From Alphaproteobacteria bacterium (GTDB taxonomy: Bacteria > Pseudomonadota > Alphaproteobacteria > CAAGCB01 > CAG-977), in the NCBI GenBank assembly GCA_900768465.1, contig CAAGCY010000014.1, forward strand, positions 83-64,082: a stretch of DNA of 64,000 bases, given 5' to 3'. A program made the position numbers and the translations under genes. Below the pieces are notes generated by a model. The model was not told the origin of the DNA and searched no databases. It saw nothing but the letters and a program-made list of their open reading frames with translations. Shown in pieces: positions 8,415 through 48,190 of the stretch (position 1 is its first letter; each line of letters opens with the position of its first letter).

Positions 8415-9463
8415 GCGACGGGCGCCCACAAAACGTCTTCGATTCGGCTCGCCCCCGTAATCAGCATGACCAGACGGTCGATGCCGACGGCAATCCCCGC
8501 GGCGGGCGGCATGGCGGCAACGGCGGCAATGAAGTCTTCGTCAATCGGATAGCGTTCGCCGTACAGCTTTTCCTTTAAATCCATGTCGTGTTCAAAGCGT
8601 TCGCGCTGTTCTTTCGCGTCGGTCAGTTCGGAAAACGCGTTGGCAAGCTCGATGCCCGAAGCGTACACCTCGAAACGTTCCGCCAACCGTTCGTCGGACG
8701 GCTTGCGCCGCGACAAAGCCGCCATACACACGGGATAGTCGTACAAAATCGTCGGACGCCCGTCCAACCCCAAGTGCGGCTCGATTTTTTCGTAAGCGAT
8801 ACGGAAATAAATGTCGTCCCAGCGGTCGTCGGGCGACGTTTCAATGCCGATTTTTTTCGCCTGCTCCGCCAAAGGCGCGGGATTTGGCTCCAAAGTCGGT
8901 TCGTCGGGCAAAGTCGCCATCAAATCGAACCCCGCGTATTTCCGCACGGCTTCGGCGACCGAGATTTTTTCCCATTCGACGAACGGATCACATTCGACGC
9001 CGTCGCCTTTAAGCTTTTTGACCCCGCACGAATCGGCGCACGCACGCACCAGTTCGACGGTATCGTCCATCAGCGTCGTATAGTCGCAATTCGCCCGATA
9101 CCATTCCAACATGATGAATTCGGGGTGGTGGTGTTTGGAACGTTCTTCGTTGCGGAACACGCGCGCCATTTGAAAGATTCGGGGCAATCCCGCCGCCAGC
9201 AGCTTTTTCATCGTGAATTCGGGCGACGTGTGCAGATACATCGTGCGGTCGTCCTGCCCGAACGGCTCGACCAGCGCCGTTTGAAACGCTTTCAAGTGCG
9301 GTTCAAGCCCCGGAGAAATTTGCAAAATCGGGGTTTCGACTTCCAAAAAATCCCGCGAAATAAAAAATTGCCGCACGGCTTCGATGATTGCCGCGCGCCG
9401 TTTCAACAGCGGCAAACGGCGGACGTATTCGGCGGGATGCCAGAACGGAATTTGATTGACCAT
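8411..9463 (-). CDS. epmA: EF-P--(R)-beta-lysine ligase EpmA (GenX/PoxA, LysRS paralogue)
   Basis: 350 aa class II aaRS catalytic core without an anticodon-binding domain (FLEVETPILQ, FRNEERSKHHHPEFIMLEWY, GIAVGIDRLVM); divergent neighbour of efp. Confidence 0.85.
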   Translation of the reverse strand: MVNQIPFWHPAEYVRRLPLLKRRAAIIEAVRQFFISRDFLEVETPILQISPGLEPHLKAFQTALVEPFGQDDRTMYLHTSPEFTMKKLLAAGLPRIFQMARVFRNEERSKHHHPEFIMLEWYRANCDYTTLMDDTVELVRACADSCGVKKLKGDGVECDPFVEWEKISVAEAVRKYAGFDLMATLPDEPTLEPNPAPLAEQAKKIGIETSPDDRWDDIYFRIAYEKIEPHLGLDGRPTILYDYPVCMAALSRRKPSDERLAERFEVYASGIELANAFSELTDAKEQRERFEHDMDLKEKLYGERYPIDEDFIAAVAAMPPAAGIAVGIDRLVMLITGASRIEDVLWAPVA

Positions 9464-9570
9464 AAAAAAATTACTCCTTTTTGACGGCTGAGCTCTTGCT
9501 TTACAAAAGCCAATCTGTTATTTTTTGCTAAATTTTATCTTCTTTACTTCTGTATACAAGGAAAAAAGTC

Positions 9571-10134
9571 ATGAAAATGCAAGCTAACCAAATCCGTCCG
9601 GGTTGGGTCATCGAATACAACGGCAAACAATGTCTGGTCATCGGAATCGACTTGGTCATTCCGGGCAAAGGCAACGCCACGATTCAGGTCGAAATGCGCG
9701 ACGTCGCCACGGGCGTCAAAACCCAGCAGCGCTGGCGCACCGCCGACACCGTCGAAAAGCTGATGAGCGAAGACCACGACTGCACTTATCTGTATTCGGA
9801 CGGCAAGGACTTGACGTTCATGATGGTCGACACTTACGACCAGTTCACCGTGCCCAAAGAATTGCTGGGCGACCGCGCCGCTTATCTGCAGGACAATATG
9901 GAATGTGTCGTCCAGTTCATTGAAGGCCACCCCGTCAGCGTCGAAATTCCGGCGAAAGTCATCCAAACCGTCGTTGAAACCGAACCCGTGATTAAAGGGC
10001 AGACCGTTTCGTCGTCCTACAAACCCGCGGTTTTGGACAACGGTTTGCGCATCGGCGTTCCGCCGTTTGTTGCGACGGGCGACAAAATCGTCGTTTCCAC
10101 CATCGACAACACCTATGTCGAACGCGCCAAATAA
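9571..10134 (+). CDS. efp: translation elongation factor P
   Basis: 187 aa; IRPGWVIEYNGK...VIPGKGNATIQVEMRD loop with the modifiable Lys. Confidence 0.95.
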   Translation: MKMQANQIRPGWVIEYNGKQCLVIGIDLVIPGKGNATIQVEMRDVATGVKTQQRWRTADTVEKLMSEDHDCTYLYSDGKDLTFMMVDTYDQFTVPKELLGDRAAYLQDNMECVVQFIEGHPVSVEIPAKVIQTVVETEPVIKGQTVSSSYKPAVLDNGLRIGVPPFVATGDKIVVSTIDNTYVERAK

Positions 10135-14456: not shown

Positions 14457-14681
14457 ATGAAAAAAGACATTCATCCGAATTACCACGAAATCACCGTGGT
14501 TATGACCGACGGAACCGAATTCAAAACCCGTTCCACAATGGGCAAAGAAGGCGATACCGTCCGCTTGGATATCGATCCGCTGTCGCATCCCGCGTGGACG
14601 GGCGTTTACCGCATGATCGACACGGGCGGTCAGTTGGCGAAATTCAACAAACGTTTCGCCGGCTTTACAGCCAAGAAATAA
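14457..14681 (+). CDS. rpmE: 50S ribosomal protein L31
   Basis: 74 aa [22 protein letters not shown]...; start at internal ATG 14457 with SD GGAG. Confidence 0.95.
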
Positions 14682-14696
14682 AAGATTTTCTTTTGA

Positions 14697-14730
14697 AACA
14701 GCGGCTTGCTTTCAAGCCGTTGTTTTTTTT
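14697..14730 (+). terminator. rho-independent terminator after rpmE
   Basis: ACAGCGGCTTG-CTTT-CAAGCCGTTGT stem followed by T8. Confidence 0.7.
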
Positions 14731-14782
14731 ATTGCCTTTTCACCGCCCGATTGACTATACTGAAGCCGATTTTTCAAAGGGG

Positions 14783-16705
14783 TTGACGGTGTCGGGTATT
14801 GTTAATTACGAAGTATACGCTTATCAAAACGGCAGCTGGGATTTAATCGGGCGGTATCCGTCCGAACGGCGCGCCGCCGCGATGGAGCACGCAAAATCCG
14901 TCGAATTTTCACAGCAAAAACCGACCAAAGTCGTCAAAGAAACTTACGATATGGACGCTCAGCTGTTCACCGAAGCCATGGTGTATTTGAGCGATTTGCC
15001 CAAACCGCCGCCGCGCGACAAATTTATCGGCAAAGCCGCTCCGCCCATACCGAAATACACGCAAAGCACGTCCAGAAAGCGGCGTCAATCGTTTACCGAA
15101 GCGTTTTTGCGGCTGGGCGGGGCTTTGATAGCCTCTTTGCTGGGATCGGGCGCGTTGTCCGCCGCGATTTTGCGGGCGATGGTGCTGGGTAATTTCGCCC
15201 CGACGGATATGCCGCAGCATTTTGCGCTGGGCTTGTTTGTTTTCTTCTTCCTGTTTCTGTCCATTCCGCTGGCGGTGCGCTGGGTTGACTGGAACGTCTT
15301 GATGGGCGTCGACGAAGAAGATGAATTGCTGCGCCGTCAGCCCAAAATGGAACAGGAAATTCGCGAAAAGGCGTTCAAACCCACCGAAACGCAGACCGAA
15401 AAAATCGAAAAAGTCGACGCTTTTTCGGCAGGAATCGTTCGTCTTTTATTCAACTGGTACGACCGGATTACGGGACGCAAGCCGTTGACCGAACAGGGGC
15501 AGGAACAGCCCGCCCCCGCCCCCGAAGAAGAAGCCGCCGACGTTCAAACGGAAACGCCGCCCGCTGCCGACGAATCGCCCGCCTCCGACGCCGAAACACC
15601 CGAAGACCCCGAATCCTCCGACGCCGCAGACGCCGAAGCCAAACCCGCCGACTCTTCCGCCGATGCGGAATTGCCCGACATTCCCGTATCGGAAAGCGTC
15701 CTGCCCCCCGCTTTAAACAAATACAATCTGCAATTAACCGCTTTTTTATCGCTGACGTTAAAAGTTTTGCAAAAACAAAACGCTCTGCTGAACACATACG
15801 CCCGTTTCGGCGTGGAGCTGTTTTTGGCGGGCGCGTGCGAATTTTTATGCACCAAAAACACGCTGACCAAAGACGACAACCGTCTGCTTTTGGCGTCTCA
15901 GCTGGAACTGATGGGACGGTCCAAACCGCTGGCGGATTTGTTTTACGACCGTTTGGACGAGTATATGCTGGAACCCACGTATTTGCCGATGATTGAAAAC
16001 GGCGAAAAAGCGATGGAGCTGTATACCGAAACGCCGAACTCGCCCGAACTGCTGTCCCTGTTGCAGGGGGCGTTGCAAAAATGGCTGAATCCCGACAAAA
16101 AAGAAACGCCTCAATCGGGCATCATCTCGATTATGTTTACGGACATCGTCGGATCGACGCAAATGACGCAGACCTATGGCGACAAGCTGGCGCAAGAGCT
16201 GGTTCACCGCCACAACACGATTGTGCGCCAAGCGCTGACCGCCTGCAACGGCGAAGAAATCAAACAAACGGGCGACGGCATTATGGCATCGTTTGTATGG
16301 GCGTCGAACGCTTTGGACGCGGCAATCGCGATTCAGCGCGCCGTTGACGACTACAACCGTCAATCTCCGACCGTTCCTTTGGATATTCGAATCGGACTGA
16401 ACGCGGGCGAACCGATTGTGGAAAACAACGATTTGTTCGGACTGACGGTTCAGCTGGCATCCAGAATATGCGGTCAAGCGGATAAAGACCAAATCTTCGT
16501 TTCCAGCGTCATCAAAGAACTGGCGGCGGGAAAGAACTATACTTTCAAAGACTTGGGACTGTTCGACCTGAAAGGAATCGACGACAAGCAACGCTTGTAC
16601 GAAGTCGTTTGGCAAAAGCCCAAAAAGAAACACACCCCTCCTCGGAAAGCCGAAGAACACGTCCCCGTCGAAAAGAATTTGGACGAAGTCTTGCCCGAAC
16701 TGTAA
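14783..16705 (+). CDS. membrane-anchored class III adenylate/guanylate cyclase
   Basis: C-terminal CYCc domain (ISIMFTDIVGSTQMT...GDGIMASF...IRIGLNAGEP). Start is probably TTG 14783 or GTG 14789, after the rpmE terminator. TM segments and an acidic Pro/Ala/Glu/Asp-rich linker are present. Confidence 0.8.
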   Translation: MTVSGIVNYEVYAYQNGSWDLIGRYPSERRAAAMEHAKSVEFSQQKPTKVVKETYDMDAQLFTEAMVYLSDLPKPPPRDKFIGKAAPPIPKYTQSTSRKRRQSFTEAFLRLGGALIASLLGSGALSAAILRAMVLGNFAPTDMPQHFALGLFVFFFLFLSIPLAVRWVDWNVLMGVDEEDELLRRQPKMEQEIREKAFKPTETQTEKIEKVDAFSAGIVRLLFNWYDRITGRKPLTEQGQEQPAPAPEEEAADVQTETPPAADESPASDAETPEDPESSDAADAEAKPADSSADAELPDIPVSESVLPPALNKYNLQLTAFLSLTLKVLQKQNALLNTYARFGVELFLAGACEFLCTKNTLTKDDNRLLLASQLELMGRSKPLADLFYDRLDEYMLEPTYLPMIENGEKAMELYTETPNSPELLSLLQGALQKWLNPDKKETPQSGIISIMFTDIVGSTQMTQTYGDKLAQELVHRHNTIVRQALTACNGEEIKQTGDGIMASFVWASNALDAAIAIQRAVDDYNRQSPTVPLDIRIGLNAGEPIVENNDLFGLTVQLASRICGQADKDQIFVSSVIKELAAGKNYTFKDLGLFDLKGIDDKQRLYEVVWQKPKKKHTPPRKAEEHVPVEKNLDEVLPEL

Positions 16706-21876: not shown

Positions 21877-22689
21877 TCAGTTAGAGATAATCAGCTCCTT
21901 GGTATGTTTGGTTCCGTTGTTATTGATGCTGTAAGTCACGGGGACGGATTCGAGGGTGAAGTCTTTGAACAGGTCGCGGATTGGTTGGACGTCGTTTAAC
22001 GACAAGATAAACCGTCCTTTAATGCCTGTTAAACAATCGCGCAACCGCTCGAAGTCGGCGCGGGTGAACACGCCTTTGCCGTAGTCGGTTTCGTTGCCCC
22101 AATACGGCGGGTCGATGTAGAACAGCGTGCCTTTGCTGTCGTAGTGTTTGATGAACGTTTCAAAGTCTTGCCGTTCAATGGTCACGCTCGCCAGCCGTCC
22201 GCCGACAGCGCGGACGCGGTCTTCCATTTTCACGAAGTCAAACCGCGCCGGACGGTCGATGGATACGCCGAACGACTGCCCCGTCACTTTGCCGCCGAAG
22301 GCTTGGCTTTGCAGGTAAAGGAACCGCGCGGCGCGTTCGATGTCCGTCAGCGTTTCCGGCGGCGTTTTCAGCAGGCGTTCAAACTCTTGGCGACCGGCAA
22401 ACAGAAACTCCGTTTCTTTATATAGAGTGTCGGGATAGCGGCGGACAATCCGATACAGATTGACCAGTTCGCCGTTAATGTCGTTGATAACTTCGGCTTT
22501 CGGGATTTGTTTGCGCCGCAGAAAGATACCGCCCATGCCGACAAACGGTTCGGCGTAAATGGTGTGCGGGATTTGTTCGATTTTGTCGATGATCCGCTTT
22601 GACAAGCGGAACTTGCCCCCCAGATAGGGGGCAAGCGGTGCTACCCGTGCGGGGGACGCTACACGCGCGGTATCAGTTTGTTTTTTCAT
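21877..22689 (-). CDS. Dam-like (D12 class) N6-adenine DNA methyltransferase
   Basis: 270 aa; EPFVGMGGIFL (AdoMet motif) and FYIDPPYWG (DPPY catalytic motif). Confidence 0.85.
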   Translation of the reverse strand: MKKQTDTARVASPARVAPLAPYLGGKFRLSKRIIDKIEQIPHTIYAEPFVGMGGIFLRRKQIPKAEVINDINGELVNLYRIVRRYPDTLYKETEFLFAGRQEFERLLKTPPETLTDIERAARFLYLQSQAFGGKVTGQSFGVSIDRPARFDFVKMEDRVRAVGGRLASVTIERQDFETFIKHYDSKGTLFYIDPPYWGNETDYGKGVFTRADFERLRDCLTGIKGRFILSLNDVQPIRDLFKDFTLESVPVTYSINNNGTKHTKELIISN

Positions 22690-22958: not shown

Positions 22959-23168
22959 TTATTTACATTGCAGAAAGACGACATTGTTTCTATCAACTTG
23001 CCTGATAGTTTCGGCAGTGTCGTTCTCATAATCCAAATAAACGGGTTCGTACACGTCGCAAAAGCTACCGCTTATAGACGGCGTGCAACTTGTCAACAGC
23101 ATCAGGATCGCGTAGAGTTTCCCGCGCTTTGCGAGCAGTTGACAGACTTTCGGTTTTAGATTGTTCAT
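22959..23168 (-). CDS. probable o-spanin (outer-membrane lipoprotein)
   Basis: 69 aa; lipobox LLTSC after a basic/hydrophobic leader; overlaps the i-spanin gene out of frame (23065-23168). Confidence 0.55.
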   Translation of the reverse strand: MNNLKPKVCQLLAKRGKLYAILMLLTSCTPSISGSFCDVYEPVYLDYENDTAETIRQVDRNNVVFLQCK

Positions 23169-23256
23169 GTTTCAATCTTTCGCGTAATTGACCGATTTTA
23201 TAGGTCAGCAAGGCAATAACTGCCCCGCTGACCGTTAAAATGACATATAGCGTCAT
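23065..23256 (-). CDS. probable i-spanin
   Basis: 63 aa; N-terminal TM MTLYVILTVSGAVIALLTY, then a charged helical region; follows the holin. Confidence 0.5.
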   Translation of the reverse strand: MTLYVILTVSGAVIALLTYKIGQLRERLKHEQSKTESLSTARKARETLRDPDAVDKLHAVYKR

Positions 23257-23459
23257 GTCGATTTCGCCCTGTATTTTGTATACAGGTTGCGCCCGATGAT
23301 GATCAGCCCCGACACGCCCGTAATCGCGGACGTGGCGTAACCGACAATCTCGGCTTGTTCCGTCGCGGTCACGTCAACGCCGACGGCTCCCGCAATCGAA
23401 GCCAGCACGCACACGATCGCCGTGATCAATGTCGGGCTGAGAACGGTTTTCTTTTCCAT
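23253..23459 (-). CDS. probable holin
   Basis: 68 aa from ATG 23457-23459 (SD GAGGAG); two TM segments and a basic C-terminus; between the endolysin and spanins. Confidence 0.55.
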   Translation of the reverse strand: MEKKTVLSPTLITAIVCVLASIAGAVGVDVTATEQAEIVGYATSAITGVSGLIIIGRNLYTKYRAKST

Positions 23460-23463
23460 GATT

Positions 23464-23868
23464 TTACTCCTCAACAAGTTCGCAATGCGGACGATCCCAA
23501 GGTATGGCGTTCGCCACCTTTATCCCCAGTTCGTCGGCGCATCGCCGTTCCAACGCGGCGAGTTCGTCCCACAAAGGGGACTTGTCGTCCCATTCCCCCG
23601 CCGCGTTTAAGGGAACGGGATACGGCACGCGGTCATAAGCCCGCGCCGGATTCGCGTTGTGTTTGGAATACGGATACTTGACCTTCGACCGTCCCGCCGC
23701 GAAAGCCGCGTTCTGCTCGGCTTCTCCGCGATGTCCGCAAATAATCGCAAAGTCCATGACCTGCTTTTCCAGCATCAGCACAGCCAAAGCCCGCAGGCGC
23801 GGGTCAAGTTCGTTCAAGCACTTCAAGCTGTTTTTTGAAAAGGCGTAGCTCACGGCGTTTCGCTCCAT
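23464..23868 (-). CDS. endolysin, peptidase M15 (VanY/L-Ala-D-Glu peptidase-like)
   Basis: 134 aa; CGHRGEAEQN ... SKH ... DRPHCEL zinc-ligand pattern of M15 peptidases. Confidence 0.7.
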   Translation of the reverse strand: MERNAVSYAFSKNSLKCLNELDPRLRALAVLMLEKQVMDFAIICGHRGEAEQNAAFAAGRSKVKYPYSKHNANPARAYDRVPYPVPLNAAGEWDDKSPLWDELAALERRCADELGIKVANAIPWDRPHCELVEE

Positions 23869-36555: not shown

Positions 36556-38448
36556 TTAGCCGTCCGAACCACCCGTCGGCGGGTTTTGCGCCGGCGTGAC
36601 AATCGAACCCTGAAACGCGCGGTAATCGATAATCGCGCCGCCGTAGATGTGACGGATTTTGTAGGTGATCTGGTCATTCGTGAACACGCTGCCCGCCGTC
36701 GGGTTGTCCTGAATGAACAGCTCCGGTTCTTCGTTGCCGTCCAAAAATCCGATTTCCAATCCCGTGATGTCGGCGGGGTCGGCTGCCAGATACCAATCGT
36801 CTGCATCGGTCGCAAACCAGATCGGAACGATTTCAGGTTTGACCGTCTGGACGTACTGCGGGTCGTTGTTCGTGTTTCTGACAAACAGGTTGTAAGCCGA
36901 TTCCTCCAATTCCGGCGGCACCAGCAAAAACGCGGGCGGAATGGACAGCACTTCGTTTGATCCCGCTTCCGTCTGTTTCATCATCGCCAGACGGCGCGCC
37001 GTAAAGCTGGCGGCGGTCAACGCTTCCGTCCCCAAGTTGCCGTGGTCGGCATGGAACAGCGTTTTCGTGTCCCCCAGCGTCGGGTTGGAAACAATCAGGT
37101 TAAACGCGAACTTTGACAGCGTTCTTTTCGCCGCGCGCGCCAGTTTAACCGGAATCTGACGGATAGCCCCGACATCGTCGTTTTTAATCATTTCCAGCGT
37201 AATCTTTTCCAATCCGCCGCGTTTCGCCGCAGAATACTTCGCGACATCGTCAGTCGGGTTGGTGACCGCCGTGTAAGCCGCCGCTTCGTTCACCGTCGGC
37301 AAATCGCCGTAGCCGCCCATGCGGACGCGTTTCTGTTCGCGGAAATCAGCCACGGGAACGATGTTCGCGAACTTGCGCCATGCGTCCAAAGCCGTCCGGT
37401 TGTTGTATTCTTTGACCATTCGGCGGGTGATCGCGTCGCCCAGCACGTTGCCGAACGATGCCGAAGTCAACGCTTCGGTGAAGTTTTCGACGCGTCCCGA
37501 CACCTTGCCGTCGCCCGTCAGCTCAATGTAGGCTTCTTTGAACGACAAGGCCTGTTTGTGGTCTTTGTGCGTTTCGTCAAAGAAAGCGTCCAAGCGTTCG
37601 GCGGCTTTTTCCCCGTGGTCTTTGGTCACGGCGGTGCGTCCCGTCCCCAAGTCCGAAACCGTGGCTTCGGTGAATTTCGCCAAATAGTCCAGTTCGTCCT
37701 TGATGGCGTTTTCAACGTCGGATTCCTTGAAATCCGCCAAAGCTTCAAACTGCTTTTTCAGCCGCGTTTTCGCCATTTCCGGCAAAGAGCTGGCGGCAAT
37801 CGCCGCTTTGGCGTTCGCGCGCGCTTCAACCATTCTGATTTTATTGTCGATGTCCGCCGCCGAAACCGTCGGCGCGGGCGTGGAAACAGACGCGGTCTGT
37901 TCTGCCGTTTTTTCCTTGTCACTCATTGTTTGTCCTTCGTTGTTGATGGCTTCGATAAAGTCGATGATGCCGCCGTTCGCCCCCGGTTCGACGATTAAAT
38001 CGACCGATTTGACGGCGGAGATTTTGCAGGCTTCGCGCACCGTTTGACCGTTGATCCGCGTTGTTTTCGCCGTCGCCGACGCATCAATCGAAAAACCGAA
38101 CAGGTCGGTCATTTTGTTGTCGAACGCTTCGCGCAGTTTGACGGCAATCGCGCCGTTCGGCTCAATCAGTTCAAAATCGGCTTGGATTTCCTCCGCTCCT
38201 TCGACAAAGCGGGGATTGCTCAGCCGCCCGATCAGGTTGCGGAAATCTTTGCCTTTACCCTGAATGTGCTCCTCGTCGGAACGCACCAGAACCCGCGCCC
38301 CGTCAAACAGCGGAGCCGCTTCACGCAAAGCCGCGGGGGAATAGTAGTTGCCGTTTTTGGATACGCCCGCGGAAATAACGCGGATTTTAAAGCGTTTTGC
38401 ACCTTTTTCCGTCACGTCCGCCGCTTCCAAAAAATGGGATTTGTTCAT
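36556..38448 (-). CDS. fused prohead protease / scaffold / major capsid protein
   Basis: 630 aa single ORF. N-terminal about 170 aa is protease-like (RVISAGVSKNGNYYSPAALREAAPLFDGARVLVRSDEEH), the centre is an Ala/Glu/Lys-rich helical linker, and the C-terminal about 330 aa is capsid-like. Confidence 0.6.
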   Translation of the reverse strand: MNKSHFLEAADVTEKGAKRFKIRVISAGVSKNGNYYSPAALREAAPLFDGARVLVRSDEEHIQGKGKDFRNLIGRLSNPRFVEGAEEIQADFELIEPNGAIAVKLREAFDNKMTDLFGFSIDASATAKTTRINGQTVREACKISAVKSVDLIVEPGANGGIIDFIEAINNEGQTMSDKEKTAEQTASVSTPAPTVSAADIDNKIRMVEARANAKAAIAASSLPEMAKTRLKKQFEALADFKESDVENAIKDELDYLAKFTEATVSDLGTGRTAVTKDHGEKAAERLDAFFDETHKDHKQALSFKEAYIELTGDGKVSGRVENFTEALTSASFGNVLGDAITRRMVKEYNNRTALDAWRKFANIVPVADFREQKRVRMGGYGDLPTVNEAAAYTAVTNPTDDVAKYSAAKRGGLEKITLEMIKNDDVGAIRQIPVKLARAAKRTLSKFAFNLIVSNPTLGDTKTLFHADHGNLGTEALTAASFTARRLAMMKQTEAGSNEVLSIPPAFLLVPPELEESAYNLFVRNTNNDPQYVQTVKPEIVPIWFATDADDWYLAADPADITGLEIGFLDGNEEPELFIQDNPTAGSVFTNDQITYKIRHIYGGAIIDYRAFQGSIVTPAQNPPTGGSDG

Positions 38449-38458
38449 GACGCGCCCC

Positions 38459-38668
38459 TTATTTGTTCAAGGTGTGCTTGCGGCCGTCGCCGGTCACGAC
38501 GACGACGCGGTCGCCAAAATCCGCAAAAGACAGAACGTCCCGTTCGGAAACGCCTTTGCGTCCGACGATTTCGACTTTTCTGTCCCGTAGCAGTTTCAGA
38601 ACGCCCGCCTTGTCAATGCCGACAGGCTTTTCTTCGGTTTTCGGATCTTCGTTTTTCTTGTCCGCCAT
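38459..38668 (-). CDS. small hypothetical protein, first gene after the late box
   Basis: 69 aa from ATG 38666-38668 with SD TAAGGAG. Confidence 0.45.
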   Translation of the reverse strand: MADKKNEDPKTEEKPVGIDKAGVLKLLRDRKVEIVGRKGVSERDVLSFADFGDRVVVVTGDGRKHTLNK

Positions 38669-38805: not shown

Positions 38806-39210
38806 ATGAGTGAAGCGTGGATTGCATTTACAGGTGTTATTGTTGGGTCTGCTATATCAGCAGGATTCACTTGGTTTATTGAATGGCGCAAATCAAAGAG
38901 CGAGGAACGCATCAGATTAAAACAAGAAGGGGAGGAAGCTTTCCGCCAAATTATTCAAATCTTTTTTTCAAAAGAAGATGTGTTCTTTAAATTCTTTTCG
39001 ATACAGCCTTTATTGCCGAAAACCGCCTCTCAGCATATTTTGGATGAGAATAAAAAAATATTAGATAATTTTTTCAATCGTAACCAAGACCTTCTGGCTA
39101 AAAGGATCAATATGTCCCCAAAACAGACGAACATAACATCAGATTTTGCCTTAGAAGATGTCATCATTCCCTTGTTTAAAGAATTGGTATATGACAAACA
39201 TCAACGTTAA
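38806..39210 (+). CDS. AT-rich opposite-strand moron: hypothetical membrane-anchored protein
   Basis: 134 aa from ATG 38806; N-terminal TM WIAFTGVIVGSAISAGFTWFI. It is the only plus-strand gene inside the structural region and is visibly AT-rich. Confidence 0.5.
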   Translation: MSEAWIAFTGVIVGSAISAGFTWFIEWRKSKSEERIRLKQEGEEAFRQIIQIFFSKEDVFFKFFSIQPLLPKTASQHILDENKKILDNFFNRNQDLLAKRINMSPKQTNITSDFALEDVIIPLFKELVYDKHQR

Positions 39211-39309
39211 ACGGGGGTTAAACGGGTCTGTGCGCATTTTGGCGGCAAAAAGCAAACCTCGTCCGTCCTTAAACCCAACCGCGCACACACGGGCTTTAAA
39301 ATCGGTTTT

Positions 39310-39429
39310 TCATTTCGCGATGAAACTCAGCACCAAAAACAACGCCGCCACGGCGGGCATATAGGCGTTTTTCCAGACCAGCAACAGCGGGACGCTTAAC
39401 GCCAGAACGGCAATCCAGTCGTGCGTCAT
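39310..39429 (-). CDS. small hydrophobic peptide (39 aa); not in the ORF track
   Basis: MTHDWIAVLALSVPLLLVWKNAYMPAVAALFLVLSFIAK; its ATG overlaps the upstream stop (TGATG). Confidence 0.4.
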   Translation of the reverse strand: MTHDWIAVLALSVPLLLVWKNAYMPAVAALFLVLSFIAK

Positions 39430-39578
39430 CACGGTTTCCTTTTCAGCAAATCATACAGGCAGTAACCGACTGTTCCCAAAACGGCGACCGGCAGGAATAT
39501 CAGCCCGATCACGAACGGCACGCACAAAAACGCCAATATCATGCCAAGCGCAACCATCGTTTCCAGCAAATCCTTCAT
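39429..39578 (-). CDS. small hydrophobic peptide (49 aa); not in the ORF track
   Basis: MKDLLETMVALGMILAFLCVPFVIGLIFLPVAVLGTVGYCLYDLLKRKP; ATGA overlap with the upstream gene. Confidence 0.4.
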   Translation of the reverse strand: MKDLLETMVALGMILAFLCVPFVIGLIFLPVAVLGTVGYCLYDLLKRKP

Positions 39579-39832
39579 TCTTTCCCCCTTCCGTTCAAGG
39601 CGTTACGAGCCCACGTTCCAAATTCCTGTTCGTCCACGCCATAGCCGTTGTCGAATACTTCCCAAACCTTGCCGTCCACAACGGAAAAATGATGTTCAGG
39701 AGCGGCGTATTTTTCCAACGCTTTACGCAAGCGGACGTTTTCTTCCGAAAGGCGATATGCTCTCGCGCACAGTTTTGCCGTCGCTCTCAAATCTCGTTTG
39801 AACCGCTTAAATTTTTCTTCGGTTTCGGTCAT
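39575..39832 (-). CDS. hypothetical small protein (85 aa)
   Basis: ATGA overlap with the upstream gene; helical N-terminus. Confidence 0.45.
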   Translation of the reverse strand: MTETEEKFKRFKRDLRATAKLCARAYRLSEENVRLRKALEKYAAPEHHFSVVDGKVWEVFDNGYGVDEQEFGTWARNALNGRGKE

Positions 39833-40074
39833 TTATCCCTCTCGATCACCGACCACAAACGAAGACCGGCGGGACGTTTCTGGTCGTCGTCAATGCCGAA
39901 AATACGCCAGTCGCTCCGCATAATGTTGCAGATGTTCATACTGTCCAGCGGTTCAAAACCGTTGTGCGTCAGTTCGCAAATTTGGTCGTCAATCATGCAC
40001 AAAGGGTCGGAACGACCGTCGAATATGACGGCTTCACCGGAACGCATCGCCGCCAGAGCCTCTTCAAAAAACAT
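39829..40074 (-). CDS. DUF2829-like (Tad2-like) small protein
   Basis: 81 aa from ATG 40072-40074. N-terminus MFFEEALAAMRSGEAV and C-proximal NIMRSDWRIFG resemble the DUF2829 pattern M-F-x-EAL-x-A-[ML]K-x-G ... D-[IL]-x-A-x-DW-x-I. Confidence 0.4.
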   Translation of the reverse strand: MFFEEALAAMRSGEAVIFDGRSDPLCMIDDQICELTHNGFEPLDSMNICNIMRSDWRIFGIDDDQKRPAGLRLWSVIERDK

Positions 40075-40075
40075 C

Positions 40076-40270
40076 TTATTTTTTCCCGTCGAAAATAGGT
40101 TTGAAGGCAAAATAGCCGATAAGCATGACGACATAACTTTCCAAAGAGATTACCAGTCGAAACGCCCTTATTCCCCAGTTTTCCAAGGCGTACAGCTCCC
40201 AAAAGCTTGATGAAAAGAAAATGGTGTATGCGACCATAGACCAGAATAAAAAACACAACATATTTTTCAT
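40076..40270 (-). CDS. small two-TM membrane protein (64 aa)
   Basis: MKNMLCFLFWSMVAYTIFFSS...VVMLIGYFAF; ATGA overlap with the upstream gene. Confidence 0.45.
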   Translation of the reverse strand: MKNMLCFLFWSMVAYTIFFSSSFWELYALENWGIRAFRLVISLESYVVMLIGYFAFKPIFDGKK

Positions 40271-40512
40271 TTTGTATCCCCCGTATTTTTGCGATATTCC
40301 AACGCCTGATCGCACTGAAACACGATTTCGTCCCAGTCGGCGCAAAAACCGTGTTCGCTCACTTCTTGGCGGATTGCCTGCAAAGCGGCGGAACACCTGT
40401 CTATTTTTTCACGGTAAAAGTTCACCGTTTCGACAGGCAGGATTTCGTAGCGTTTCTTGGGCGAAGCGATGACAAGGCAACGGTTAAACGGCAGTTTGAT
40501 TTTCATAACCAT
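40267..40512 (-). CDS. hypothetical small protein (81 aa), first gene of the accessory cluster
   Basis: Start at ATG 40510-40512 (or 40504-40506), preceded by AGAAAGAG and a 143-bp AT-rich spacer. Confidence 0.45.
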   Translation of the reverse strand: MVMKIKLPFNRCLVIASPKKRYEILPVETVNFYREKIDRCSAALQAIRQEVSEHGFCADWDEIVFQCDQALEYRKNTGDTK

Positions 40513-40655
40513 TCTCTTTCTTGCTTTTCTTTCAAGGAAAACGTATAATTGTATTATTGAAGAAAGGGCTTGCTTGGAAAGGAAGTCGGATAACAACCAG
40601 CCTCTTGCAAAAGAGTCGATGTAGCGGAGAGTAGCGCACCCGCCTTGCCCTTTCT

Positions 40656-42005
40656 TCACTTTTCTTTGAGTATTTCATACGCGTTTTCATTCCTGAGATT
40701 TTGCTCTTCCATTTTCCCTGCCGTTACAATCCAGTTGCGGGATTGGGCGTTTTTGGCGTTGTCTTCCTTGCGTTGCAGGTTCACGGCGACTTTGTCATAC
40801 AGCCCGTCGGGGCGTTTAAACGCGTAAATCAGCTCGTTTTTGTTTTTGGAACGCAGCACAACGTCGGCATTAGTCAATCGGTCGGGCAGATGTTTGATTG
40901 TGTTCAAATCGATCTGTTGCCCGCGCGCCTGTTTGACGGCGCGGGACAGGTGGATCAGCTGTTTGTCCGTAATGGAAATGTCCGCGCTGAACGGTTCAAT
41001 CCCGCGCACTTTCAACGCCTGCAAGATTCCCGCGTCGATAACGCCGACGGTTTTGGACGTGCCGTCCGGACGCACGCCGTCCGCCCGGCTCAATATTTTT
41101 TCCGCCCAGTTGGCGTACTCTTCGCGCCGGACATCTTGCACAATGCGCTTTTCGTTGCTTTTGTTCAGTTCGTCGGCGGTAAAAGGAACGTCGGCAGGGT
41201 GTTCGACTTCCCAATCGTCCATATAGGGCAAACAAACGCACCCGCAGTTGATTGTTTCCGCGGCGGGGGCGGTCGGGTCGCGGGGATACATCATTTTGAC
41301 CCCGCCGACCGTAAAGGGTTCGTCCGCATCAACCACTTGCCCGTCCGCCATATCGTGCGTCAGCCGGCTGTGAATCTTGCCCGATCGCCGCCATTGCTTT
41401 TTCATTTTCAATCCGGTTTCCCGCGCCTGCATCAGGCGTTCCTGCGTGGCGACCGAAAAGGCGCGCCCCAGTTCCGTGTTGACGATGCGGTACGCCCGCG
41501 CCCGCCCGTTGGTGTCCAAGTGCGCCGCGATTTCCCGCGCCGCCTGAAACGGATTTTGAGCCCCGATCAGGCAAAGTCCCATTTGTTCGCTGATTTTCTT
41601 TTTCGCTTGTTCCCCGATATCCGCCAAACGGTCGGTCATAAAGGAGCGCATCGCTTTGATTTGTTCCGTGTCCGCCCGCTGCACATGCGCGTTTAAATCA
41701 AATTTAAACATCGCTTTAACGGGTTCGTCAACCAAAGCCGCGCCCGTTTCAACCGCTTTGTCAAACCCGACGATTCCGACGGAACGCAAATCCGATTTCA
41801 GTTCTTCGGCGACACGTTCAATGTCCTTTTGCACGTTGGTCAACGCCCACATCTGATAATCGGACGGCGCGATCGCCAGACGGCTGCGGATTTCCTCTTT
41901 GGCTTTTTTCAAGAAAGCGTCAATGTCGGCGCGGGTTTGCCGCACGTCGGCGACAAAGCGTTTAAACTGCGCTTTCTTTTCCCGTTCAAACGGATTGTTC
42001 GTCAT
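40656..42005 (-). CDS. Mu F-like (SPP1 gp7 family) head morphogenesis protein
   Basis: 449 aa; ...RARAYRIVNTELGRAFSVAT...WRRSGKIHSRLTHDMADGQVV...INCGCVCLP is the Phage_Mu_F-type core. Confidence 0.8.
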   Translation of the reverse strand: MTNNPFEREKKAQFKRFVADVRQTRADIDAFLKKAKEEIRSRLAIAPSDYQMWALTNVQKDIERVAEELKSDLRSVGIVGFDKAVETGAALVDEPVKAMFKFDLNAHVQRADTEQIKAMRSFMTDRLADIGEQAKKKISEQMGLCLIGAQNPFQAAREIAAHLDTNGRARAYRIVNTELGRAFSVATQERLMQARETGLKMKKQWRRSGKIHSRLTHDMADGQVVDADEPFTVGGVKMMYPRDPTAPAAETINCGCVCLPYMDDWEVEHPADVPFTADELNKSNEKRIVQDVRREEYANWAEKILSRADGVRPDGTSKTVGVIDAGILQALKVRGIEPFSADISITDKQLIHLSRAVKQARGQQIDLNTIKHLPDRLTNADVVLRSKNKNELIYAFKRPDGLYDKVAVNLQRKEDNAKNAQSRNWIVTAGKMEEQNLRNENAYEILKEK

Positions 42006-46276: not shown

Positions 46277-48190
46277 TTATTGTTTGATTTTTCCTCTCAT
46301 AATATCAAGGAATAGTTTGTTTCGTTTTTCCGCTTCCAATGCAACTGCTCCGGAATCGATAAAATACACATGGGCGTTTATTTCATTAAAATATCTGTAA
46401 AAAATCTTATATGCGCCCTCTGTTGAAAAAAGGCACCTAAAATCACTTGTTTTTAATCTATATGCCAATTTTTCATCAATTTTTGTTATAGCATATCCCC
46501 AAATGGTGTCTATTTCATTGAAATTTTCTCTAACTATTCCTAAATTCTCTGTAATTTCCCAAATAGCTTTTGCTTTTTCAGAATCGTCCGCATAGTTCCC
46601 CTTAAATTCTACAACAACAGCATCTTTTTGATTTAAATCATCATGAGAAAAGAATAGTGTCAGGTCTGGTCTATCTTTCGGTCTAAAAACATTTTCTTTT
46701 TGGGATTTTTCACAAATTTCTTTTATTGTTTTATCGCTTGCTATATAAAAACAACTCATAAATTTATCGTCTAATATCCATAGGTTATGGCTGTACGGAA
46801 CTGATTCATCATTGTTTTTTGAAATCGTTTCTCTCATAGGCATAAAAAGCGTGTGCATATGCTTTTCAAGCTTATTTTCGTCCGCAACACAATCCTTTAA
46901 ACCTTGAATAATTTGCTGTCTAAAAGCAAAGTATTCCGCCAATTCTCGTGCAGATAAATCCGTTATTTCGGAAACAACTTTGTTATATTCAGTGTCATCT
47001 ATATCTGCTTTTTTTAATATCTCAGAAAAACGGTCTTTTGCGCTTTTTTTATCATCTTTAAAAGCTTTTTCCGCATTTTTGATGATGTCGTTTGCAGGAA
47101 CAAAGGTGTTTTCCTGTTCATTTATGTATTTACTCAGATAAGGATATTCTTCTAAACACTTTCCTACAACATCTTTTTCTGTTTGTTCTAAAACTGGATA
47201 TTTTTGAAAGATAATCGGCGTAGCTTCACCTTTTACGGAAGAACAAATTGCATCTAATGTAATCGGTGAGTTCAAATCTTCTTCTTTTGAAAAATCAAAT
47301 TCATTTCGTTCTGGATTACAATGTTTATCCAAATAAGAAGATGTTAAAAACATAAAAACTTCTTCATTTGCTGGGATGCGAACTGCAAATCCAAAATTTT
47401 TAACAGCTCTATTGTCGGCGCACAAATACCCTTTGAATTCGCCCTTAGTTGCCGGATTAAAAGAATAATACAAATCAAAATCCGCATCAAATTTTTGTGT
47501 TTTTGATACGATTTTAAACTTTTTTTCTTCAAAGTCTGGAACGGACAATGGCGATAAAACACGGATATTATCTCCCTCTTGAATTTTAATTAGAAAATTT
47601 TTTCCCTCTTTTTTCATAAAAAATAGTTTTGATAAAATTTCGGCTTTCAATACCTCAGCAACATTAGCTACATCGGCATTAGAACGTTTATCGATTTTTT
47701 TTGTGTAATAATCGTCAGTTACAGATGAAAAAGTGATTTTTGTCCCTGTCGCCAATGCACCATCTTTTTCATCTTTTTTAATATCTTCCACTTTGAAATC
47801 AGGCTTGAATACAAAAGAAAGTTTTTTATCTTTTGTAAAACTTTCAATTGATATGTTTTGAAATACTTTCAACCATGTTAAACGTCCAACCCCTTTGCAA
47901 CCGATATTTTTCTTGTATGATGATAAATATGTATCAAATGATTTTAGATTTTCTTCTGTAAAACCATCGCCATTGTCTTCAATTACAAATCCATCTATTT
48001 TTTTTACGACTTCTTTTTCTGTCGTTCCATTTTCACCCTTCAGCTGAAGTGCTGGCACAATGGAAGGGAGTAATGTAACTGTTATCTCTGTTGCATTAGC
48101 TTCCAATGAGTTGCAAACCGCTTCAATTAGCGGCTGAAGAAACTTAACAGGTTTCAAACTCTTAACAGCGGCAGACAAGTTGACTTGCAT
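46277..48190 (-). CDS. AT-rich moron: GHKL (Bergerat-fold) ATPase with C-terminal PD-(D/E)xK-like nuclease motif
   Basis: 637 aa. N-box EAVCNSLEAN, G1 IEDNGDGF, G2 GCKGVGRL in the first about 105 aa; DRPDLTLF...VVVEFKG (D509-x18-E528-x-K530) near the C-terminus. Strongly AT-rich relative to its flanks. Confidence 0.6.
   Translation of the reverse strand: MQVNLSAAVKSLKPVKFLQPLIEAVCNSLEANATEITVTLLPSIVPALQLKGENGTTEKEVVKKIDGFVIEDNGDGFTEENLKSFDTYLSSYKKNIGCKGVGRLTWLKVFQNISIESFTKDKKLSFVFKPDFKVEDIKKDEKDGALATGTKITFSSVTDDYYTKKIDKRSNADVANVAEVLKAEILSKLFFMKKEGKNFLIKIQEGDNIRVLSPLSVPDFEEKKFKIVSKTQKFDADFDLYYSFNPATKGEFKGYLCADNRAVKNFGFAVRIPANEEVFMFLTSSYLDKHCNPERNEFDFSKEEDLNSPITLDAICSSVKGEATPIIFQKYPVLEQTEKDVVGKCLEEYPYLSKYINEQENTFVPANDIIKNAEKAFKDDKKSAKDRFSEILKKADIDDTEYNKVVSEITDLSARELAEYFAFRQQIIQGLKDCVADENKLEKHMHTLFMPMRETISKNNDESVPYSHNLWILDDKFMSCFYIASDKTIKEICEKSQKENVFRPKDRPDLTLFFSHDDLNQKDAVVVEFKGNYADDSEKAKAIWEITENLGIVRENFNEIDTIWGYAITKIDEKLAYRLKTSDFRCLFSTEGAYKIFYRYFNEINAHVYFIDSGAVALEAEKRNKLFLDIMRGKIKQ

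Follow-up and report, generated by a model that had tools for sequence, protein, structure and literature searches.

A mobile cassette of six small coupled genes in the head-gene slot of Mu-like prophages from gut Alphaproteobacteria, a candidate counter-defence locus

In Mu-like phages of Pseudomonas the anti-CRISPR (acr) region, with small genes in mix-and-match combinations, is situated between G and the gene for the protease/scaffold (PMC3993853). We analysed a stretch of 64,000 nucleotides (nt) from an alphaproteobacterial contig (in the following: the window), which holds a Mu-like prophage on its minus strand (about 22.9-56 kb). Six tiny open reading frames (ORFs), o1 to o6, lie there between a MuF-like head morphogenesis gene and the capsid operon, and an original prediction had proposed a counter-defence or host-manipulation cassette by analogy to the Pseudomonas region. 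The analogy in position is correct (PMC3993853), and the acr region of the JBD30, D3112 and DMS3 group is the closest described system by function and position. Our analysis identifies a mobile accessory cassette of Mu-like prophages from uncultured human-gut Alphaproteobacteria, and with moderate confidence we favour counter-defence or host manipulation as its most likely role.

Like the acr region, the locus has a constant place within the head block, next to the protease/scaffold on its upstream side, and holds variable, unrelated small genes between conserved morphogenesis flanks. It differs in its upstream neighbour (MuF, i.e., F, instead of a G homologue), in the lack of an aca (anti-CRISPR-associated) gene and of any known Acr family, in its three membrane microproteins with a conserved o5-o6 core, in a structured RNA at the place of the expected promoter/operator, and in its setting, with gut Alphaproteobacteria as hosts and an adjacent second sub-slot for opposite-strand defence-like cargo. 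Membership in the acr-aca family fails, as there is no aca gene, operator/promoter or Acr homology. The locus also resembles other phage accessory ('moron') and defence hotspots (P2/P4; the anti-Gabija locus of SPbeta-like phages), which hold variable cargo of lower guanine-cytosine (GC) content between core genes and exchange it by recombination in conserved flanks. It differs from these by two adjacent compartments, a same-strand array of microgenes and a usually opposite-strand single-gene or toxin-antitoxin cargo, and by an array that is common to lineages with unrelated structural genes. We would class the locus as a variant of the phage accessory/anti-defence hotspot with a new minimal Tad2-like branch.

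The six ORFs, with lengths in amino acids (aa), are:
40267-40506, minus strand: o1, first cassette gene, 79 aa (81 aa from an upstream start), soluble, with conserved cysteines
40076-40270, minus strand: o2, 64 aa, two hydrophobic segments
39829-40074, minus strand: o3, 81 aa, acidic, putative divergent mini-member of the Tad2-like (DUF2829) superfamily
39575-39832, minus strand: o4, 85 aa, long N-terminal helix and a conserved C-terminal domain of about 55 aa
39429-39578, minus strand: o5, 49-aa membrane microprotein, constant core of the cassette
39310-39429, minus strand: o6, 39-aa hydrophobic microprotein, almost invariant

The ORFs and their junctions all lie where the original prediction had placed them, with ATGA overlaps at 40270-40267, 39832-39829 and 39578-39575, TGATG at 39431-39427 and a 1-nt gap at 40075. 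Each ORF is called in a collection of 15 billion proteins, in clusters (90% identity) of 35-221 members, and the exact 39-aa sequence of o6 is indexed in 747 blocks of this collection. Comparison with 8-12 distinct homologous nucleotide copies gave ratios of non-synonymous to synonymous differences (pN/pS) of 0.27 for o1, 0.35 for o2, 0.19 for o3, 0.32 for o4, 0.13 for o5 and 0.01 for o6 (45 synonymous versus 2 non-synonymous changes), indicating purifying selection on all of them. The clusters, the o6 blocks and the low pN/pS values demonstrate that o1-o6 are real genes, and together with the overlap or 1-nt gap at every junction they bear out the idea of one translationally coupled operon. 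The grand average of hydropathy was 0.73 for o2, 1.39 for o5 and 1.43 for o6, which accounts for the three short hydrophobic peptides noticed before. For o1, the gene was confirmed but not the 81-aa start at position 40512: most cluster members have 79 aa and the homology to the cassette of a second phage lineage (see below) begins at 40506, so that the ATG at 40506 is the most likely start.

The cluster does lie between MuF and the capsid operon, but it is not in direct contact with the capsid gene. Between o6 and this gene we found a conserved segment of 113 nt, a low-GC ORF on the opposite strand (38806-39210) and a conserved 69-aa gene (38459-38668). The GC content of the whole slot is 45.6% versus 55-56% in the flanking head genes. 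The conserved flanks are:
40656-42005, minus strand: MuF-like head morphogenesis gene, upstream flank (PF04233, 35.3 bits; phrog_2468, E = 8e-35)
36556-38668, minus strand: downstream flank, consisting of the 69-aa gene (38459-38668) and a 630-aa fusion (36556-38448)
36556-38448, minus strand: protease-scaffold-major capsid fusion, 630 aa (Phage_capsid_4, E = 2.6e-45; matches to head maturation protease and major head PHROGs)

Relatives that have the MuF and capsid type of the window were assigned to lineage A, and all of them keep the 69-aa gene and the capsid fusion. Where MuF is 93-97% identical, all or most of the six genes are kept; in this group L045 is devoid of o4, and L038 has a Cys-rich 65-aa gene where o2 stands. 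Most or all of the six genes are absent from relatives with 79-83% identical MuF and 86-87% identical capsid. At this MuF distance L004 and L021 lack the six altogether and have another tiny transmembrane (TM) peptide at this place, L005 and L006 keep o1 alone, and L022 has o1, o2, o3, o5 and o6 at 72-95% identity and no o4. The o1 proteins of L005, L006 and L022 are 72-77% identical to that of the window. The predicted variable content between conserved flanks was thus found, the slot being hypervariable, and the same six genes are not conserved even among lineage-A relatives. The o5 and o6 proteins themselves are near-invariant.

An exact look-up of o6 led to a second Mu-like lineage, B, with the same cassette in the same slot. 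Among its head genes are a MuF of 413 aa that bears a PBECR2 domain, a Mu-like protease encoded separately, a scaffold and a gpT capsid. Positions 40506-39197 of the window are 90-96% identical in nucleotide sequence to lineage B, whereas the flanking structural genes showed no nucleotide similarity by blastn. The cassette of lineage B, which also includes o1, occurs in several forms: o1, o2, o3, o5 and o6 without o4 (L042); o1, the Cys-rich 65-aa gene in place of o2, o3, o5 and o6, again without o4 (L039); a 110-aa gene, a 61-aa gene, o5 and o6 (L037, L041 and L043); and a fusion of o4 and o5 in a 134-aa gene (L044). The breakpoints coincide with gene junctions; the gap for o4, for example, extends from 39841 to 39580. 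L008, a third and unrelated Mu-like phage, also carries o3 (70% identical) between MuF and the protease, where its neighbours include a YopX protein and further small genes. In all of 10 contexts compared from both lineages o5 and o6 occurred together, and the constant part of the cassette consists of o5, o6 and the adjoining 113 nt (39580-39197).

Since slot content varies and the block is common to both lineages, the cassette is dispensable for the virion, modular and horizontally exchanged. It is reshuffled gene by gene at the junctions, and two Mu-like lineages whose structural genes are not related have exchanged it as a whole. We have little doubt that the cluster is a mobile, mosaic accessory cassette in a hotspot between MuF and the protease/capsid genes.

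The original prediction had regarded the members as unknown; o3, as it turned out, has a family. One of its mates in the 90%-identity cluster bears the depositor label DUF2829. There was no direct family match for o3 in Pfam or PHROGs, and a word-indexed search returned only relatives of at least 69% identity. An exhaustive search with a profile of the o3 family recovered short relatives of 63-93 aa, which share M-x-F-E-x-A-L-x-A-M-R-E-G-K...N-I-x-A-E-D-W-E-I-V. Matches to PF11195 were obtained for 15 of 19 family relatives, three of them above the 25-bit gathering cut-off across the whole model: P0130, P0134 and P0139, found by the profile at E = 3e-6 to 3e-4, score 26.2, 25.8 and 25.1 bits against full PF11195. 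The close relatives of o3 reach only E values of about 0.1-0.17 with this model. After setting aside chance matches to repeat or kinase chains, the four best PDB matches of the o3 profile were Tad2 chains (8v3e, E = 0.0029; 9eib, ModTad2, E = 0.003; 8kbi; 8sme). In PDB sequence searches with o1, o4 and the o3 family, no similarity to solved Acr proteins appeared, and only these Tad2 chains matched, with the o3 family.

Compared with the known Tad2 proteins (Thoeris anti-defence 2, PF11195: SPO1 gp34.65, HgmTad2, ModTad2), o3 has a similar size, the N-terminal helix motif M-x-F-E/G-E-A-L-x-x-M/L-+-x-G, the C-terminal motif N/D-I-x-x-x-D-W-x-I and a compatible predicted topology of a helix followed by antiparallel strands. 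In the AlphaFold2 (AF2) model (mean predicted local distance difference test, pLDDT, 65.7; about 80 over residues 1-54) helices at 3-11 and 45-53 frame strands at 25-42. In contrast to Tad2, o3 is shorter by about 25 residues in its central region, has neither the GWN motif (W25, N26) nor W73, and possesses an extra disordered, basic C-terminal tail (residues 55-81). Good transitive profile evidence suggests that o3 is a stripped-down, divergent member of the Tad2-like/DUF2829 superfamily, with the fold match unconfirmed. We infer that it may act as a binder or sponge.

A further mini-Tad2-like gene (P0123, 41% identical, 39% by blastp) was observed on a short metagenomic contig (L010, 1-2110). 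It belongs to a run of small overlapping genes, one of them for a Cys-rich 57-aa protein, and this run has the look of a further accessory array.

Alleles of o4 differ by swapped N-termini, but their C-terminal domain (about 55 residues) hardly varies. Several sister alleles (P0149, P0150, P0154 and P0159) carry at their N-terminus a zinc ribbon of the Lar_restr_allev family (PF14354) with 35-48 bits versus a cut-off of 28.6. Other proteins are in-frame fusions of o4 and o5 (P0146 and P0147, with 71 member sequences, and the 134-aa gene of L044). The likeness to the Lar family (PF14354, Lar of the Rac prophage) thus consists in sister alleles with a bona fide Lar-type ribbon before the same C-terminal domain; the difference is that o4 of the window has a plain helix for the ribbon. 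In the AF2 model a confident helix spans residues 3-43, and a beta-hairpin and another, short helix come after it. This model gave no Foldseek match with E < 1, and the PDB sequence search with o4 was empty or meaningless. By these fusions the C-terminal domain appears tied to restriction alleviation by association and to the o5 membrane anchor physically, and since it is fused to o5, action at the inner membrane together with o5 and o6 is suggested.

No match to o1 was found among PDB sequences, and in L037, L038 and L039 the place of o2 is taken by a Cys-rich soluble protein of 61-65 aa. No structural PHROG or Pfam matches were obtained for the cassette, which is in agreement with the earlier statement that none of its products resembles a virion protein.

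Three non-coding elements accompany the genes:
40556-40660, minus strand: RNA-like structured element of about 100 nt, 3′ of and overlapping the MuF stop codon
40507-40555, minus strand: AT-rich leader (27.5% GC) with the motif AAAAGCAAGA (40528-40519) and the ribosome-binding site of o1
39197-39309, minus strand: conserved 3′ non-coding end of the cassette, with a long imperfect hairpin, the motif ACGCGCACAGACCCGTTTAAC-CCCCGTTTAAC and tandem CCCGTTTAAC

The RNA element consists of an outer stem P1, hairpins P2 and P3 and a conserved 3′ region containing AUCCGACUUCC. P1 equals the inverted repeat that had been noticed before, which is present but has 12 instead of 9 bp (40558-40569/40647-40658) and overlaps the MuF stop codon. 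The spacer described as AT-rich is so in its last 51 nt (27.5% GC) but not in the 101 nt between the repeat arms (51.5% GC). We aligned seven distinct variants from lineage-A phages. The RNAalifold consensus has 28 pairs, 14 of them with compensatory changes, and 15 pairs change on both sides versus 7.4 ± 1.7 in shuffled alignments (0 of 500 reached 15) and 2-5 in slid controls. By explicit counting, 92% of the cells pair, and 8 of 10 pairs in P1 and 6 of 7 in P3 covary. Of the two strands, only the phage-sense one agrees with the conserved G-U pairs. L003 and L005 have a variant of divergent sequence in which the architecture and the CCGACUU loop motif are kept. The inverted repeat is a covarying RNA stem and not an operator or promoter feature; it lacks the sequence conservation of an operator.

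According to a covariance model, each lineage-A phage has exactly one copy of the element (L006 has two), in every case directly adjoining the stop codon of MuF; there was no other copy in the window and none in lineage B. Scans with DNA patterns for the RNA core mostly yielded chance matches (L011-L017, L019, L023-L026, L029, L030 and L032-L036 were discarded after inspection). Because homology to lineage B starts only at 40506, the element belongs to the MuF flank and not to the mobile cassette. L006 carries at 9443-9692 a remnant of a second MuF C-terminus (41% identical), then a second, diverged copy of the RNA and then a leader of the lineage-B type; this is a recombination scar, from which it follows that the RNA travels with the 3′ end of MuF.

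Known classes of RNA did not account for the element. There was no Rfam 15 match at E <= 1 over 2.6 kb, and a search over 201 nt gave a single, meaningless match (E = 8.8), so that a known ribozyme or riboswitch was rejected. ARAGORN found no tRNA or tmRNA, and an intrinsic terminator was dismissed as no U-tract follows P1. The RNA may act on the transcript of the cassette through processing, stability or control of translation, which is the weakest step of the argument.

The leader motif AAAAGCAAGA of the window corresponds to AAAATCAAGA in relatives, and AAAATCAAGA stands before the first gene of the slot in both lineages and in L008, mostly as the sole copy in the locus. At the other end, positions 39197-39309 are 90-94% identical to lineage B. 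The tandem CCCGTTTAAC motif is common to both lineages and persists even in L004 and L006, which are without o2-o6, with a clear terminator hairpin just upstream. Since folding of the 3′ segment is no better than that of shuffled sequences (z = -0.07), we do not claim it as a structured RNA. The tandem motif could be a recombination anchor or a protein-binding site.

A second variable compartment lies between the cassette and the conserved 69-aa gene, usually with genes on the opposite strand and with lower GC content. In the window it contains one gene outside the six ORFs:
38806-39210, plus strand: distal sub-slot gene, 134 aa, N-terminal TM segment, 35.8% GC

L004 (9710-10540) and L005 have a DUF5677 protein in this sub-slot, L006 (10249-11104) a SocA/Panacea antitoxin and a TM protein, and L038 (4235-5242) an unannotated 335-aa protein. 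The common N-terminus MHFATDKDTIRH... of these genes in the ORF-finder output is spurious, because it arises from a TTG in the conserved flank. The sub-slot looks like prophage-borne defence or toxin-antitoxin cargo beside the candidate anti-defence array.

We consider a counter-defence role of the cassette plausible and lean slightly towards it, because of the Tad2-like o3, the Lar fusions of o4, the position of the slot, the neighbouring defence- or toxin-antitoxin-like cargo and the lack of similarity to virion or lysis proteins. The links of o3 to DUF2829 and of o4 to Lar and the variable slot support the predicted counter-defence cassette; beyond the DUF2829 link no member resembles a known Acr, and no Aca regulator was found. 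We suggest that the cassette would serve counter-defence or host manipulation during infection. Being on the late strand of the phage, it would be read from there, and the RNA and the AAAATCAAGA leader probably set its expression in a way other than as an operator. The o3 protein may be a small oligomeric binder, which could act as a sponge for immune signalling nucleotides or, like other DUF2829 proteins, as another antagonist of immunity. The C-terminal domain of o4 might bind a partner and work at the inner membrane with o5 and o6, which would form the conserved membrane core.

Several results weigh against counter-defence. For o3 there was no Pfam match at E <= 1, leaving it below the 25-bit gathering cut-off of PF11195, and Foldseek of its AF2 model against the PDB gave no match with E < 1 and did not recover Tad2. 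Profiles of o3 aligned by hhalign with SPO1 Tad2 (gp34.65) over the first 18-21 residues only, i.e., the N-terminal helix, with a probability of 17-33%. The main contacts of SPO1 Tad2 to glycocyclic ADP-ribose (gcADPR) are W25, N26, W73 and D79 (bioRxiv 10.1101/2023.05.01.538930); o3 has R21, S22, no equivalent and N50 at these positions. As the key contact residues are not kept, the ligand of o3 probably differs from that of SPO1 Tad2. The o4 protein of the window gave no PF14354 match and has a plain helix where the zinc ribbon would stand, so that its link to Lar appears to be guilt by domain fusion only. No match to o1, o2, o5 or o6, and thus no relative of known function, was found in Pfam, PHROGs, NCBIfam or PADLOC. 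Near-invariance, as seen for o5 and o6, is unusual for arms-race genes. Pfam and NCBIfam revealed no helix-turn-helix (HTH) or Aca-like regulator among o1-o6, nor any other domain, the 3′ genes being two membrane microproteins, and a consensus promoter scan of the leader gave one promoter-like match, no more than expected by chance.

The alternative that survives best, and which we regard as unlikely, is lysogenic conversion or superinfection exclusion. According to it o2, o5, o6 and perhaps an o5-tethered o4 alter the host envelope, blocking the entry of other phages or acting as toxin-like, prophage-stabilising peptides, with o3 and o4 carried along incidentally. It would fit this view that half of the six products are hydrophobic microproteins, that o5 and o6 are a constant and strongly conserved core, that the cassette-less L004 and L021 still have a small TM peptide at the spot, and that the neighbouring sub-slot holds defence- or toxin-antitoxin-like cargo of benefit to the lysogen. 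However, the genes are on the strand of the late operon directly behind MuF and have no demonstrable promoter of their own, searches of Pfam, PHROGs, NCBIfam and PADLOC gave no similarity to known superinfection exclusion (Sie), immunity (Imm) or type I toxin families, and the family link of o3 points to anti-defence.

A doubtful extension of counter-defence would see the slot as a two-compartment exchange platform, bounded by the structured RNA and the AAAATCAAGA leader at the 5′ side and by the tandem CCCGTTTAAC motif at the 3′ side. In it, o5-o6 and o4 would be a new membrane counter-defence, with the o4 domain docking on o5, and might neutralise membrane-disrupting effectors of cyclic-nucleotide immune systems; o3 would be a minimal sponge with a new ligand specificity, and the RNA a new class of phage riboregulator that times anti-defence expression.

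MuF-family proteins are often associated with cargo that is delivered by the capsid. This tie, together with the location of the genes inside the head block and their translational coupling on the late strand, would suit auxiliary head-assembly factors or internal virion proteins that are injected. Such a function is very unlikely, since relatives with 79-83% MuF and 86-87% capsid identity are largely or entirely devoid of the six genes, one and the same cassette occurs in two lineages with unrelated MuF, protease and capsid, three products are membrane peptides, and no structural PHROG or Pfam matches were obtained.

Slightly more improbable still is an operon of the JBD30 type in the strict sense, with Acr genes, an Aca repressor and an Aca-controlled promoter, to which we give hardly any credence. 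The same kind of slot and the mix-and-match small genes (PMC3993853) speak for it, as do the title of PDB entry 8kbi ('Inhibitor of Type II CRISPR-Cas system') and a DUF2829 protein that was once reported as AcrIIA7 (discussed in bioRxiv 10.1101/2023.05.01.538930). However, an HTH or Aca-like gene is missing, the covariation of the inverted repeat is that of an RNA stem, PDB sequence searches gave no similarity to solved Acr proteins, and the authors of the Tad2 study consider DUF2829 proteins as anti-Thoeris rather than anti-CRISPR (bioRxiv 10.1101/2023.05.01.538930). Least probable of all is lysis control by holin-, antiholin- or spanin-like o2, o5 and o6, which their small size, one or two hydrophobic segments and charged C-termini would allow, but which is opposed by a complete lysis cassette about 16 kb away, the lack of a lysis PHROG match and the absence of the cassette from close relatives.

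With counter-defence or host manipulation as the favoured function, the locus extends the principle of a head-module slot for anti-defence genes of Mu-like phages from Pseudomonas phages to uncultured human-gut Alphaproteobacteria, and its position can guide the search for new counter-defence genes in gut viromes. Three candidates come from this slot. The minimal Tad2-like subfamily of 60-80 aa is without the canonical gcADPR contacts, so that one may ask whether its ligand is a new one. A small domain is joined by turns to Lar-type zinc ribbons, to a coiled helix or to a membrane anchor, and the membrane microproteins of 39 and 49 aa form an exceptionally conserved pair. To these can be added a covarying RNA motif, apparently undescribed, that is tied to the 3′ end of a MuF gene. 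The locus is no categorical surprise; what it offers are new small proteins open to testing, along with an undescribed RNA motif, all from an uncultured lineage of the gut.

The close relatives of the prophage are contigs from metagenome-assembled genomes (MAGs) of uncultured human-gut Alphaproteobacteria. The head region (8.5 kb) had no megablast match among 50,697 isolated phage genomes, and tblastn with o3 and P0139 found no match in isolated phages; IMG/VR contains one partial relative only. A near-identical prophage region (L003, CAVCSV010000037.1) was observed inside a MAG labelled Limosilactobacillus gorillae and is probably a binning contaminant. In the early region of the prophage a 689-aa ORF is what we take to be a MuA-like gene, and the ORF after it presumably occupies the position of MuB in Mu-like phages. 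Further features of the prophage are:
minus strand: packaging gene, Gp27 (PF11985)
terminase-position gene, 492 aa (its counterpart in relatives gives a weak Terminase_6N match only)
portal-position gene, 456 aa, labelled by position
22959-23868, minus strand: lysis cassette, at the prophage end and not before the terminase genes
21877-22689, minus strand: orphan type II-like DNA methyltransferase (PADLOC MTase_II, E = 3.6e-58; phrog_56), beside the lysis cassette

In the window the capsid and its protease- and scaffold-like N-terminal parts form a single ORF of 630 aa, and the second lineage with the cassette has three separate genes for them. Tail genes follow downstream of the head block, and the far end of the prophage is made up of the lysis cassette and the orphan methyltransferase. 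The lysis cassette encodes an endolysin of 134 aa (23464-23868; phrog_465, E = 1.9e-21), a holin-like 74-aa protein with two TM segments, an i-spanin-like 63-aa protein with a TM segment and a coiled coil, and an embedded o-spanin-like lipoprotein of 69 aa. With endolysin, holin-like and nested spanin-like genes all present at 22959-23868, o5 and o6 were rejected as lysis genes. The methyltransferase at 21877-22689 is likely an anti-restriction function by self-methylation, in a Mom-like position.

A PADLOC scan of the ORFs in the host flank found neither Thoeris nor CBASS (cyclic-oligonucleotide-based anti-phage signalling system). A host protein of 703 aa (14594-16705, plus strand) gave weak matches to Pycsar cyclases (best E = 1e-6), which cover the cyclase domain only, and probably has a generic nucleotide cyclase domain. 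Within the prophage, a 637-aa protein with a HATPase_c_3 domain (33.9 bits; 46277-48190, minus strand) and no PADLOC match is encoded between the early and the packaging genes and may be another moron or defence candidate.

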